A stretch of 64,000 bases of DNA from Escherichia coli (GCF_003790525.1 NZ_CP033635.1); one strand, 5' to 3'; counted from the stretch's first letter, positions 9,041 through 53,990 are shown. Notes: generated by a model from the sequence alone, not told the origin. Numbers and translations: made by a program.

Positions 9041-9349
9041 AAAATAAATATATTCTGAAAAAATATGCCGACTCTTGCATGAGAGTGGGCATATTGCCAT
9101 GCTGACAGGAGACTCACATAAGGAAAGGCAGAATTTCCAGACGTCGTTGTATATTTTCATTTGCTTTAATAAATTTCATTTTTGGTAAATTCAGCATTAT
9201 GTTATTAGCGATGAGCAAGACCAATCATTAACCAAGTTCTCTTCAGAATGTAATGAAAAATGTGAAGTGCATTTCTTTTTTAAAATTTTTTACCCTATTA
9301 TTTCTTATCAAATTAACATTGCCCTTAATTATAAGAAAGGAGAATATAA

Positions 9350-10198
9350 ATGAACAACATATTAGGCTCATCAATTAATATGCCCTGTACACTTTTCGAA
9401 ACTATTACTTTATTCGATGATTTTTCTGCTGATGATATGCAGTATGGGGATATGGAAGAACAAGATTTTCTCTCACTCGGCTTAAGCGACATCTCTGCAA
9501 AAGTTGATCCTTACCGCCTCATTAAATACCATTTTCCTGGGCCGAATTCTACTTATGGTGCTTTTAGTGTTCCAACTTCTGGAACAAAAATATCACAAAG
9601 TGAATGTATTGATATTTTATTTGCAGAAATGAAAGATCTGGCAAAAATGTTTTCCTTTTTTGGACAATACAAAACACTCATCCAGGATCTGATTGATCAT
9701 TTTAGATATGGAAATGGCAACAGTTTCCATAGCCAGGAATTGAACTTATCTTTTCATGAACGAATAAACAAATATGATTATAATAGCCCAATACGTGTAA
9801 TCAAAGAATGTATCGAAAATGATATTTCTTCAACACCTACGATAGGATACCGGCCTCTTCTCCTACAAAAGATTAAGACCGAATTACTTTCATCAAGACT
9901 AAATAAATTCAATGATTTTAAAGATAATTTTAATGGCATGGGAATCAGCATTCATGATATCTCAGCTCAAAAAATATCTCTTTTAAATTTTCAAAAATAT
10001 CCTATGGGCTGGAGCGCTACCATTCATTTCATAGCACAAGACCACTTTGGTTTGGATGTGACTGATATAAAAAACAAGATTTACAACAAGTATAGATTTT
10101 TTCGCATATGGTTCTTTTTACAACGGCATAAAGACTTTGCTTTCAAACCTTTTTTCACCAATTTTAACACTATCGAAAGAATCGAAAATTATCTATGA
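9350..10198 (+). CDS. Hypothetical soluble protein (282 aa), first gene of the AT-rich cassette
   Basis: Long ORF in a visibly AT-rich region, preceded by Shine-Dalgarno aaggag (9337..9342) about 8 nt before the ATG; no signal peptide or TM segment; codons strongly A/T-biased. Family unknown (tentative recollection: DUF3289-like length and composition). Confidence 0.75.
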   Translation: MNNILGSSINMPCTLFETITLFDDFSADDMQYGDMEEQDFLSLGLSDISAKVDPYRLIKYHFPGPNSTYGAFSVPTSGTKISQSECIDILFAEMKDLAKMFSFFGQYKTLIQDLIDHFRYGNGNSFHSQELNLSFHERINKYDYNSPIRVIKECIENDISSTPTIGYRPLLLQKIKTELLSSRLNKFNDFKDNFNGMGISIHDISAQKISLLNFQKYPMGWSATIHFIAQDHFGLDVTDIKNKIYNKYRFFRIWFFLQRHKDFAFKPFFTNFNTIERIENYL

Positions 10199-10692
10199 AA
10201 AGAAAACTCCAGAAAATTATATTATATTTATTTCTTCTATGCTGCATCTATAATTTATGGACATTGCGTCCTGTACAGATTTTGTATACATACTCTGATG
10301 CTGGCAATTCAGTCTTTCTGGTCGTTGATCATCTGCCATGGACTGACAGCGATAAAATAAATTGGTATCTGAAGCATCAGAATGAAATTAAAAATCAACA
10401 CCCCCTACCAGAAGGTAGTTGGCATACCTGGTATGTTATTGATATCGGTAATGGCTTCACTGACTATAAAAAATATATCGAAGGGCCGTATGAAGATCTC
10501 TACTGTTTCCCGACGATTAAGAGCAATGATAATTGCATCGTAAAAAACTATTTAATGGTTATTAATGAATATCCTTACCGTAATACTCATTTTTTTATTG
10601 CTGATAACAATGAGTATCAACTAACCCAGGAAAATAAGATAGAGCGAGTGTTCAACCCGCATGACTTTGAAAAAGACAATTTTCAGCAATAA
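10195..10692 (+). CDS. Hypothetical small membrane-anchored protein (165 aa), second gene of the AT-rich cassette
   Basis: Start overlaps the upstream stop in ATGA (10195..10198); N-terminus MKRKLQK followed by a ~17-residue hydrophobic segment IILYLFLLCCIYNLWTL, then a hydrophilic domain. Family unknown (tentative recollection: DUF943-like). Confidence 0.7.
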   Translation: MKRKLQKIILYLFLLCCIYNLWTLRPVQILYTYSDAGNSVFLVVDHLPWTDSDKINWYLKHQNEIKNQHPLPEGSWHTWYVIDIGNGFTDYKKYIEGPYEDLYCFPTIKSNDNCIVKNYLMVINEYPYRNTHFFIADNNEYQLTQENKIERVFNPHDFEKDNFQQ

Positions 10693-10720
10693 GCCGGATA
10701 AAGAACAATCTTTACCCGGC
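10693..10720. terminator. Stem-loop between the convergent cassette gene B and corA (possible bidirectional terminator)
   Basis: gccggataaag / aacaat / ctttacccggc, an 11-bp stem with one mismatch, immediately after the gene B stop and just before the corA stop. Confidence 0.45.
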
Positions 10721-10727
10721 ATTTATA

Positions 10728-12894: not shown

Positions 12895-13797
12895 ATGAAA
12901 AAAAGGCTCGCAACGTTATTTTTATTAACGTGTCTGGGATCATCATCCGCCTATGCGGATAACGCTTTGATTTTACAAACTGATTTTAGCCTGAAAGATG
13001 GTGCCGTCTCGGCGATGAAAGGGGTCGCATTCGGCGTTGACCATAATCTTAAAATCTTTGATTTAACACACGAAATTCCACCGTATAACATCTGGGAAGG
13101 CGCTTATCGCCTGTATCAGACTGCCAGTTACTGGCCGCAAGGTTCGGTGTTTGTTAGCGTGGTCGATCCGGGCGTAGGCACTGACCGTAAATCGGTAGTG
13201 CTGAAAACCAAAAACGGTCAATACTTCGTTTCACCAGATAACGGTACGCTCACTTTGGTGGCACAAACTCTGGGTATTGATAGCGTCCGAGAAATCGACG
13301 AAAAAGCTAACCGCCTGAAAGGTTCTGAAAAGTCATATACCTTCCACGGTCGTGACGTGTATGCCTACACCGGTGCGCGTCTGGCTTCCGGGGCGATTAC
13401 GTTCGAACAGGTGGGGCCAGAGCTTCCTGCAAAAGTTGTCGAACTTTCTTATCAGAAAGCAAAAGCAACAAAAGGTGAAGTGAAGGGCAATATCCCGATT
13501 CTCGATATTCAGTACGGCAACGTCTGGAGCAATATCAGCGACGAGTTGCTGAATCAGGCAGGAATCAAACTCAACGACACGTTGTGTGTGACCATTTCCG
13601 AAGGTTCCCAGCAAAAATACGCAGGGAAAATGCCATATGTCGCAAGCTTCGGCGATGTGCCGGAAGGCCAGCCGATGGTGTATCTGAACAGCTTATTGAA
13701 TGTTTCCGTGGCGCTGAATATGGATAATTTTGCGCAGAAACATCAGGTTGCGTCTGGTGCTGACTGGAATATTGATGTGAAGAAGTGCGCTAAGTAA
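12895..13797 (+). CDS. SAM hydroxide adenosyltransferase (DUF62; fluorinase/chlorinase/SAM-hydrolase) family protein with N-terminal signal peptide
   Basis: 300-aa ORF with signal peptide MKKRLATLFLLTCLGSSSAYA and family-type motifs LILQTDFSLKDGAVSAMKGV, VFVSVVDPGVGT, YFVSPDNGTLT and DIQYGNVWSNI. Confidence 0.8.
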   Translation: MKKRLATLFLLTCLGSSSAYADNALILQTDFSLKDGAVSAMKGVAFGVDHNLKIFDLTHEIPPYNIWEGAYRLYQTASYWPQGSVFVSVVDPGVGTDRKSVVLKTKNGQYFVSPDNGTLTLVAQTLGIDSVREIDEKANRLKGSEKSYTFHGRDVYAYTGARLASGAITFEQVGPELPAKVVELSYQKAKATKGEVKGNIPILDIQYGNVWSNISDELLNQAGIKLNDTLCVTISEGSQQKYAGKMPYVASFGDVPEGQPMVYLNSLLNVSVALNMDNFAQKHQVASGADWNIDVKKCAK

Positions 13798-19475: not shown

Positions 19476-19944
19476 TATGGATTGCCTGTAAAGTTCATCG
19501 CTTTCTGCTTTCTATCATCGCAGGAGAAGACGTAAAAGCAAGCGTTTAGCGACTCTTTATGAAGTCTGAAAAGTGAGGAAATGCTGCGAGTATAACGCTT
19601 ACACGTGGCGATTTATGTTTTGCTGGCAGTTTCGTGATCGGCACCTCGCGCCAGGATGGCTTTATGCACTATCGCAACGTGGTTTGTTTGTTGTCTTGTT
19701 CGTTGTTCTTATCGTCGGCATGGGGATGTCGGCTTTCCGCGCCTGAACATAATATTTACCAGAAACAGGGAAAAGGCGTGGTGTACCTGCGTCCTTATGA
19801 AAAGACCAATCTTTCGCTATATAGAGATATTATTATTCCGTTGACGGATGAATCATGCCGTAACGCAGCCGCAGACGGGCAAACTTTGAAGCCCTGACCC
19901 CATACCGCTATACTGCCGCCATCACTTAAAAACAGGATACAACA

Positions 19945-53540: not shown

Positions 53541-53990
53541 GTGGCGATTAATTTCAGCCCCAAGGTTGGTGAAATACTGGAATGCAACTTTGGTAACTAT
53601 CCTGTTAGCCAGAATGGACAGTTCAGCACGACGTATTACGATGGCCGCATTCCACCTGAGATGATAAAAAATAGGTTGGTTGTCGTGCTCAACGGAAAAA
53701 TTAATGGCAACGCATGTATCGTCGTTCCATTATCAACCACTCGCGACCATGACAAGTTAAATCGTGGAATGCATGTTGAAATAGCCAGTAATGTTATCAA
53801 TGACCTGCAATTCTTTGATCAGCAGATACGTTGGGCTAAAGCCGACCTGGTACAACAAGTCAGTCGAAATCGATTAAACAGAGCAAGGACTTATCGGGGG
53901 TATCTTAATCAATGTTTGCCACATGAGTTGGTTGCAGACATACAGAGGGCAGTCATCAAGTCAATCAATGCCATATCGCTCATAAATTGA
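53541..53990 (+). CDS. yifN: PemK/MazF-like toxin-family protein YifN (apparently intact)
   Basis: GTG at 53541 preceded by aaggagag (53525..53532); the translation has MazF/PemK-like motif spacing (VGEILECNF, RLVVVLNG, ACIVVPLSTT). The 163-aa track ORF from 53499 is an alternative start. Confidence 0.6.
   Translation: MAINFSPKVGEILECNFGNYPVSQNGQFSTTYYDGRIPPEMIKNRLVVVLNGKINGNACIVVPLSTTRDHDKLNRGMHVEIASNVINDLQFFDQQIRWAKADLVQQVSRNRLNRARTYRGYLNQCLPHELVADIQRAVIKSINAISLIN

Follow-up and report, generated by a model that had tools for sequence, protein, structure and literature searches.

A putative orphan toxin–immunity pair of the DUF3289/DUF943 type at the rarD–corA site of Escherichia coli

Introduction

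Proteins of the families DUF3289 and DUF943 have recently been connected to interbacterial competition. A PAAR protein of Yersinia pseudotuberculosis ends in a DUF3289 domain that, targeted to the periplasm of E. coli, is toxic and causes the cells to round, and a Foldseek search revealed that this domain resembles colicin M-type bacteriocins (PaeM, 4G76). The toxicity is neutralized by the DUF943 partner encoded downstream, for which a membrane anchor and a mostly periplasmic location were predicted, and a re-annotation of DUF3289 and DUF943 as toxin and immunity protein was proposed (Geller et al., Mol Syst Biol 2024, PMC11148199). The linkage of the two families was also recovered 780 times in T6SS loci of Klebsiella (PMC12469244). 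Similarly, an orphan DUF3289 protein of Aeromonas jandaei shows T6SS-dependent secretion and kills prey without the pair (PMC12135965). In Bacteroides fragilis, BtpeA and BtpiA form an effector–immunity complex (Li et al., Cell Host Microbe 2025, as cited in PMC13402684). The function of these proteins at the family level is already in the literature, having been proposed in 2024, with a homologous complex solved in 2025.

The E. coli cassette that we describe here, located between rarD and corA, appears to be unstudied. Our searches of the literature on DUF943 and DUF3289 returned no treatment of it, no paper on 'YPO3983' or TIGR03034 and no biochemical demonstration of lipid II cleavage by any DUF3289 protein. 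We analyzed the locus in a stretch of 64,000 nucleotides of an E. coli genome (GCF_003790525.1, NZ_CP033635.1), referred to as the window, and counted all positions from its first letter. The two genes of the cassette, gene A and gene B, together most probably constitute an orphan toxin–immunity cassette of the DUF3289/DUF943 type, a reading to which we assign a probability of roughly 85%. The features on which the discussion is based are the following.

9100–9184, plus strand: about 28 codons from the 5' end of a yigG-like gene, left as a remnant with a frameshift, recognized by its identity to strain 18KM2445 and a 1-nt insertion
9185–9349, plus strand: AT-rich region upstream of gene A with the Shine-Dalgarno sequence AAGGAG at 9337–9342, 7 nt before the ATG, as read from the sequence
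9350–10198, plus strand: gene A, a 282-aa stand-alone protein of the DUF3289 / YPO3983 family, putative periplasm-acting toxin
10195–10198, plus strand: ATGA overlap of the gene A stop and the gene B start, read from the sequence as CTATGAAAAG
10195–10692, plus strand: gene B, a 165-aa DUF943 protein, putative immunity protein
10216–10266, plus strand: codons of the predicted hydrophobic signal-anchor helix (residues 8–24, after K2, R3, K4 and K7), from the Kyte-Doolittle maximum and an AlphaFold2 helix at residues 2–23
10504–10536, plus strand: codons of C104 to C114, a C-x9-C loop and candidate periplasmic disulfide, from conservation, spacing and the strands of the model
10693–10720, no strand assigned: hairpin carried by the cassette where genes B and corA converge, likely to be a terminator, from fold energy, comparison with K-12 and a terminator scan

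The cassette in the E. coli chromosome

The genes around the cassette are arranged as recQ, pldA, yigI, rarD, gene A, gene B, corA, yigE, a gene of the SAM-hydrolase family and uvrD, and a stretch of 1.7 kb around gene B is 100% identical to the chromosome of E. coli SMS-3-5 (NC_010498.1) and to about 20 other strains. Between rarD and corA lies the AT-rich cassette of 1.6 kb (approximately 9126–10724), whose G+C content of 33–34% compares with 51–53% in rarD and corA and 52% in the 64-kb window. It is found in 2,622 of 5,426 complete E. coli genomes (48%), always on the chromosome. The flanking proteins RarD and CorA are 100% identical between the strains compared.

The boundaries of the cassette become apparent in the comparison with K-12, where identity to the window ends near position 9125 and core sequence resumes near 10724, at the corA stop. 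Three arrangements of the site can be distinguished. In the K-12 type it reads rarD-yigG-yigF-corA; in the REL606, RS571 and O157:H7 type, rarD-yigG-yigF is followed by a second copy, 147 nt long, of the corA 3' end (94% identical) and then by A-B-corA; and in the window, as in strain EFF60, A-B follows directly after rarD. We considered yigG and yigF as possible relatives of gene B and rejected the idea, as BLASTP found no similarity (E-values of 0.42 and 2.3). The K-12 genes thus represent an alternative cassette and not a degraded DUF943 locus.

The sequence upstream of gene A retains traces of how the window arrangement arose. Positions 9041–9184 are 99.3% identical to strain 18KM2445 and lead from the end of rarD into an ORF of a yigG variant, whose frame is broken by the 1-nt insertion, while in REL606 the 182 nt that precede gene A align with positions 9168–9349 at 81%. 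The presence of a yigG remnant next to these REL606-type 182 nt indicates that the window form is a deletion derivative of the REL606 form, and the segment 9100–9184 can be read as the trace of a deletion in which yigG-yigF and the corA 3' fragment upstream of the cassette were lost. A scan of 9185–9349 for sigma-70 promoters yielded no site and no excess over shuffled sequences.

Downstream of gene B, the sequence GCCGGATAAAGAACAATCTTTACCCGGC (10693–10720, 28 nt) is predicted to fold into a hairpin of −13.5 kcal/mol, which in a consensus scan is terminator-like only on the minus strand, the strand of corA. K-12 lacks this hairpin and has a different one at the same place, between yigF and corA, so that the element belongs to the cassette. 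The preliminary description of the locus had placed a 28-bp hairpin directly after the gene B stop and had taken it as the boundary with core sequence; the position holds, but the hairpin travels with the cassette and the core begins only beyond it. A second claim made there, that the ATGA overlap implies a fixed stoichiometry of the two products, is overstated. At 10195–10198 the TGA stop of gene A overlaps the ATG of gene B, a geometry that indicates co-transcription and likely translational coupling.

The allelic variation informs us on how selection has acted on the pair. Gene A falls into two allele groups with 84% amino acid identity (dS of 0.41, dN/dS of 0.19–0.20), and the alleles of gene B differ by 1–8%, mostly in the C-terminal tail and the anchor, with a dN/dS between E. 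coli alleles of 0.13–0.23. From the overall range of 0.13–0.23, both genes are under purifying selection. Strain RS571 combines a REL606-type gene A with a window-type gene B, and EFF60 carries the reverse combination. The alleles have therefore been reassorted among strains, and there is no sign of allele-specific matching between toxin and immunity protein within E. coli.

Gene A, a putative toxin

Gene A matches the Pfam family DUF3289 with an E-value of 8.6e-83 over residues 10–278 and the NCBIfam model TIGR03034 'YPO3983 family' with an E-value of 1e-118, well above the curated cut-off; its RefSeq label is 'YPO3983 family protein'. By sequence it also matches chain A of 9JDI and chain B of 9JG8, both termed 'DUF3289 family protein' (E-value of 1.6e-5). 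By fold it matches, as gene B does, the crystallized T6SS effector–immunity complex, and colicin-M-like bacteriocins are also among its fold matches, a remote similarity. The invariant residues H202-D203 and Q230-D-H-F-G-L-D236 to D239 are candidate active-site residues only, judging from conservation.

Inspection of the sequence together with Pfam revealed no signal peptide, no hydrophobic N-terminus and no N-terminal carrier or known delivery domain in gene A. Its homologues in the set of DUF3289 loci described below are built alike, all of them being 270–370 aa long without a large carrier domain. Residues 17–21 (ETITL) were considered as a TonB-box-like motif and rejected, since E17 is not conserved in distant homologues and the segment forms a β-strand inside the modelled fold.

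Gene B, a predicted membrane-anchored DUF943 protein

The ORF of gene B extends from the ATG at 10195 to the TAA at 10690–10692 and encodes 165 aa, beginning with MKRKLQK followed by IILYLFLLCCIYNLWTL. It is identical to a gene of E. coli SMS-3-5 that RefSeq annotates as "DUF943 family protein", and it matches Pfam DUF943 (PF06092) with an E-value of 9.8e-28, residues 3–152 covering model positions 2–150 of 151. A PADLOC scan gave no match. Searching 1.84 billion representative proteins with a profile of close relatives retrieved 162 clusters at 50% identity, nearly all of them with proteins of 140–180 aa. In an alignment of 117 sequences, the near-invariant positions include P48, W57, C104, F105, C114 and K117.

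These data leave practically negligible room for the view that gene B is a spurious ORF, or an unrelated small membrane protein that merely adjoins gene A. In its favor, an NCBIfam scan of gene B returned no match. Gene B is a real ORF and not a product of chance, as it stays open in stop-rich DNA of 33–34% G+C, has Pfam and database homologues and shows the low dN/dS given above; the strong Pfam match, the confident predicted fold, purifying selection and the near-obligate linkage to DUF3289 across Enterobacterales effectively refute both variants of that view. Among DUF943 proteins it is an ordinary member, with the predicted topology of a membrane-anchored periplasmic protein. Nor does it behave as a widely conserved housekeeping membrane protein, given that about half of the E. 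coli genomes are without it and that the family comprises only 162 clusters.

Several features point to a signal anchor at the N-terminus. The only hydrophobic segment of gene B reaches a Kyte-Doolittle maximum (19-residue window) of 1.59 at residues 8–26, no other part exceeding 1.2, and it is preceded by four positive charges (K/R). Of 125 full-length DUF943 members, 111 have a hydrophobic segment at the N-terminus, and in the family the net charge amounts to +2 ahead of the helix and 0 behind it. Neither small residues at −3/−1 of a signal-peptidase site nor a lipobox can be read from the sequence of gene B, and we rejected on these grounds that it is a lipoprotein or carries a cleavable signal peptide. 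A colicin-type lysis protein was likewise rejected, in view of the 165-aa length, the folded domain and the missing lipobox.

The remainder of the protein has the marks of a disulfide-bonded periplasmic domain. Residues 26–165 are hydrophilic, with 17% F+W+Y and a net charge of −9, and contain the motif CFPTIKSNDNC at positions 104–114. C104 and C114 are each conserved in at least 90% of 117 DUF943 sequences, whereas the N-terminal Cys-Cys at 16–17 is not conserved in the family. Nearly all of the 125 full-length members have exactly two cysteines past residue 30, and the spacing is exactly 10 (C-x9-C) in 102 of 108 members with two cysteines. The AlphaFold2 model, computed with the 117-sequence alignment as input (pLDDT of 93.5, pTM of 0.84), has a helix at residues 2–23 and then a compact α/β domain, with C104 and C114 on the strands 102–104 and 114–116. 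All these marks fit an N-in, C-out signal anchor with a disulfide-bonded periplasmic domain as the predicted architecture.

Much of what had been noted on gene B beforehand agrees with these results. The ORF and its hydrophilic, aromatic-rich remainder of about 140 residues were confirmed from the sequence. The signal anchor without an AxA site is borne out by the single hydrophobic segment behind four K/R residues and by the modelled helix, and the Cys pair as a possible periplasmic disulfide by the near-invariance and spacing of C104 and C114. The periplasmic location of the domain holds as a prediction, consistent with the charge bias of +2/0, the compact modelled domain and the same predicted topology in the Yersinia homologue.

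With respect to known structures, Foldseek searches with the model of gene B returned nothing significant. The best structural match is chain C of PDB 9JDI, a protein that was crystallized together with a DUF3289 domain and is called "immunity protein" in the title of that entry. A profile of DUF943 searched against all PDB sequences did not match BtpiA at E-values up to 10, giving only a chance ribosomal match with an E-value of 0.08. The absence of significant Foldseek and profile matches places the relation between gene B and BtpiA at the level of the fold only. The colicin M immunity protein (Cmi) is absent among the fold matches listed for gene B.

Linkage of the two families across bacteria

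The association of genes A and B is conserved well beyond E. coli. A search with a DUF3289 alignment, using a single genome for each species, identified 64 loci, almost all from Enterobacterales. Of these, 62 could be evaluated, and in 57 of the 62 an HMM scan placed a DUF943 ORF immediately after the DUF3289 gene. The five loci without it belong to Morganella (four) and Aeromonas (one), in line with the different immunity protein of A. jandaei. Of 58 related A-B pairs, 53 have overlapping or abutting genes, a 4-nt overlap being the commonest geometry. Approached from the other side, eight genomic contexts were reached from diverse DUF943 proteins: six have an intact DUF3289 gene of 273–284 aa directly upstream, and these six pairs overlap by 1–4 nt.

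Copy numbers of the two genes vary between lineages. Tandem A-B arrays occur in Tatumella morbirosei (five), Rosenbergiella gaditana (at least six) and Pantoea septica (four), and at other DUF3289 loci a single A is followed by up to three copies of B, or toxin fragments precede B. In most S. enterica subsp. diarizonae and in Erwinia pyrifoliae an intact DUF943 gene stands beside a broken toxin gene, and one solitary DUF943 gene was found among the contexts looked up. Multiplied or orphaned immunity genes beside decaying toxins are what polymorphic toxin–immunity systems usually show in populations.

The surroundings of the DUF3289 loci were analyzed with Pfam on 202 neighbor proteins, listing the 20 commonest families per set. 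The neighbors are housekeeping genes together with some IS and integrase genes, and T6SS families are missing among the commonest families listed for the 62 loci. The stand-alone cassettes are two-gene insertions scattered over intergenic sites between housekeeping genes in Enterobacterales, never beside T6SS genes in the loci examined.

Taken together, the assignment to DUF943 and DUF3289, the published neutralization, the match to 9JDI and the linkage in 57 of 62 loci support the earlier suggestion that gene B is the immunity partner of gene A. In this context, we also modelled the two proteins with AlphaFold2 as a linker fusion, A-(GGGGS)6-B(26-165), with a linker of 30 residues and 30 paired rows of naturally adjacent A-B pairs as input. 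The prediction reached a pTM of 0.59, in which both domains are confident and their mutual placement is not.

Proposed mechanism and alternative readings

The layout of the cassette is that of an effector and its immunity protein, gene A lacking a Sec signal and gene B being predicted to be anchored in the periplasm, the proposed target compartment. Without an export signal, gene A would stay in the cytoplasm of the producer, away from its target. By homology it would act in the periplasm of a recipient, which it would most likely reach as a cargo effector of a T6SS. Colicin M cleaves lipid II, and the target of gene A would, by analogy, most likely lie in the cell-wall precursor pathway, namely lipid II or a related undecaprenyl-linked precursor. 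Gene B, probably co-transcribed and translationally coupled with gene A, would use its N-terminal signal anchor to insert into the inner membrane in an N-in, C-out orientation and display a disulfide-stabilized α/β domain in the periplasm, which may bind and block gene A delivered by sister cells. Toxicity, neutralization, lipid II as target and T6SS delivery are all inferred from the homologues.

The weakest link is the delivery of gene A by SMS-3-5, which is unproven as gene A has no carrier domain and a common T6SS location, the aspV site, is empty in this strain. The 64-kb window likewise contains no T6SS genes (vgrG, hcp, PAAR, adaptor). With no T6SS gene at either place, we retain two other readings beside the T6SS-delivered toxin. 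The cassette might be defensive only or a relic, gene B having been acquired as immunity against DUF3289 toxins of other bacteria and gene A not being exported here for want of a compatible T6SS or carrier. We regard this as possible, if on the unlikely side: apart from the missing T6SS genes and carrier domain, it would agree with the retention of B after loss of A in related lineages and with the occurrence of the cassette in E. coli B REL606. It has to be reconciled, however, with a gene A that is intact here and in most related loci and that is under purifying selection between deeply diverged alleles (dN/dS of about 0.2 at a dS of 0.41), and with the T6SS-dependent secretion of a carrier-less orphan DUF3289 protein in Aeromonas (PMC12135965). 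More generally, it seems unlikely that stand-alone DUF3289-DUF943 cassettes are no T6SS cargo at all and instead use a novel delivery route or act as self-contained modules of kin discrimination or addiction. If so, the periplasmic antidote would guard against a toxin entering by a T6SS-independent path. This reading starts from the scattered intergenic insertions, which in the loci examined lie apart from T6SS genes, from the presence of the cassette in about half of the E. coli genomes, the laboratory strain B REL606 among them, and from purifying selection. A specific version, quite improbable in our view, has gene A released as a colicin-M-like bacteriocin or delivered by some other T6SS-independent way, with gene B as a Cmi-like immunity protein. 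The colicin-M-like bacteriocins among the fold matches of gene A speak for it, as do the Cmi-like design of gene B, with an anchor and a periplasmic disulfide domain, and the stand-alone cassettes never being found beside T6SS genes in the loci examined, as far as the commonest neighbor families listed show.

A further question is whether gene B inhibits gene A or rather serves it as a chaperone, adaptor or export helper. The tight translational coupling would suit a helper, and adaptor genes, too, adjoin T6SS effector genes. Yet the bulk of gene B is predicted to be periplasmic, while gene A has no signal peptide, and additional or orphan copies of B beside decaying copies of A argue against a chaperone, since immunity genes, unlike adaptors, are typically retained and multiplied without the partner. 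The best structural match of gene B, moreover, carries the title of an immunity protein, and a DUF943 homologue rescues cells from toxicity (PMC11148199). We consider a helper role very improbable and favor the reading of gene B as the immunity protein of gene A.

Implications for annotation and population biology

The genes labelled 'DUF943 family protein' and 'YPO3983 family protein', in SMS-3-5 as in some 2,600 further complete genomes of E. coli, can be read as a putative envelope-targeting toxin–immunity pair. The cassette would mark a common polymorphic locus of interbacterial competition in the core chromosome of E. coli, characterized by presence and absence, two deep toxin alleles and reassorted immunity alleles, and it could affect the competition of strains in the gut. 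The pair opens no new class of system; its modest added interest lies in the population structure and in having no visible link to a T6SS.

Comparison with known systems

The closest described system is T6EC1/T6IC1 of Y. pseudotuberculosis IP32881, which shares both Pfam families with A-B in the same order. The published topology of T6IC1 (TM at 7–26, outside at 27–157) parallels that predicted for gene B (8–24 and 26–165), compared by description, and the toxin domain of T6EC1 acts in the periplasm, as proposed for gene A. The systems differ in their organization: T6EC1 carries its DUF3289 domain at the C-terminal end of a PAAR protein encoded in a T6SS operon, whereas gene A is a stand-alone protein of 282 aa in a two-gene cassette between housekeeping genes. 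In this respect the DUF3289 protein of A. jandaei DSM 7311 is more alike, being likewise an orphan, encoded away from T6SS genes and followed by a small membrane immunity gene. Its immunity protein, with 95 aa, a signal peptide and three TM helices, is not a DUF943 protein, but the case proves that a DUF3289 protein can be T6SS cargo even when its gene lies apart from those of the T6SS (PMC12135965).

The complex of the BtpeA C-terminal domain with BtpiA (PDB 9JDI, 9JG8/9JG9) comes from B. fragilis, a different phylum. BtpiA shares its fold with gene B at an identity of only 9–10% in the structural alignment, and BtpeA is a protein of 608 aa with an N-terminal part tied to spike and adaptor, unlike gene A. 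Members of the colicin M family (PaeM 4G76, pectocin M1 8JC1, ColM 3DA4) possess receptor-binding and translocation domains that are missing from gene A. On the immunity side, Cmi is designed as an N-terminal anchor with a periplasmic domain that contains a disulfide, and it has no relation to gene B by sequence or detectable fold. Judging from the models, gene B resembles Cmi in design without being a relative of it, and would be the enterobacterial counterpart of BtpiA.

Configurations of the rarD-corA site

The rarD-corA intergenic site of E. coli occurs in three configurations (window 9041-10727; loci L002, L082, L083, L084 and L085). K-12 carries yigG-yigF alone between rarD and corA. REL606, RS571 and O157:H7 carry yigG-yigF, followed by a second, 147-nt copy of the 3' end of corA (94% identical) and then by the genes of the putative DUF3289 toxin (A) and its putative DUF943 immunity protein (B), while the window holds A-B alone. 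This duplication of the end of corA points to entry of the cassette through recombination at the corA 3' end or insertion into it. How the window configuration arose can be read from a remnant upstream of A:

9100-9184, remnant of a yigG allele, first ~28 codons, frameshifted (by comparison with strain 18KM2445)

The remnant carries a 1-nt insertion and is otherwise 99.3% identical to strain 18KM2445. Its presence shows that the window configuration derives from a REL606-like arrangement through deletion of yigG-yigF-corA'.

Allele reassortment, toxin decay and metagenomic copies

Within E. coli, the alleles of A and B have been reassorted among strains (window 9350-10692 compared with L082, L083 and L084). 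RS571 has the divergent A (84% amino acid identity), and its B shares 99.6% nucleotide identity with that of the window; EFF60 combines an A of the window type with a B bearing a REL606-type C-terminus. In the strain comparison, dS reaches 0.41 for A, far above the 0.02-0.13 of the flanking genes.

The DUF943 gene can also outlast its partner. It is intact downstream of a split or fragmented DUF3289 gene in S. enterica subsp. diarizonae, at the same rarD-corA site as the window cassette (L004, L006, L038), and in Erwinia pyrifoliae (L011, L012); in one lineage the DUF943 gene stands alone, without a toxin gene. All of these cases, which include L016 and L017, look like orphan immunity genes.

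An A-B cassette was also encountered in L018 and L019, contigs whose labels read 'uncultured Alistipes sp.' and 'uncultured Clostridium sp.', with proteins 83-84% identical to those of the E. coli cassette; these are most likely Escherichia DNA mis-binned into those metagenome-assembled genomes.

Other features of the window and of the SMS-3-5 chromosome

Three further features were recorded in the window:

12895-13797 (+), stretch whose K-12 counterpart is a mere 146-nt gap
~19634-19819 (record 4273828-4274013), DKNYY family protein, pseudogene fragment between cyaY and lptM (annotation)
~53541-53990 (record 4239657-4240106), intact PemK/MazF family toxin gene of a type II toxin-antitoxin system, between ppiC and rep (annotation); no antitoxin gene is annotated adjacent to it

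In SMS-3-5 (L086, NC_010498.1 225001-275000), yafV directly follows the second tRNA-Asp gene of the stretch, with no type VI secretion island between the two. Some 9 kb beyond, after rayT, there is a second cluster of flagellar genes (flhA, flhB, fliF and others).

Arrays and alternative immunity families

Elsewhere, DUF3289-DUF943 pairs stand in tandem, up to five or six, and up to three DUF943 copies may follow a single toxin gene; such loci occur in Tatumella morbirosei (L036), Rosenbergiella gaditana (L046), Pantoea septica (L043) and in L022, L023 and L039. No DUF943 ORF was found downstream of the DUF3289 homologues in L071, L072, L075, L077 (Morganella morganii) and L080 (Aeromonas piscicola). 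These homologues presumably rely on an immunity protein from a different family, which is the reported situation for the DUF3289 protein of A. jandaei (PMC12135965).
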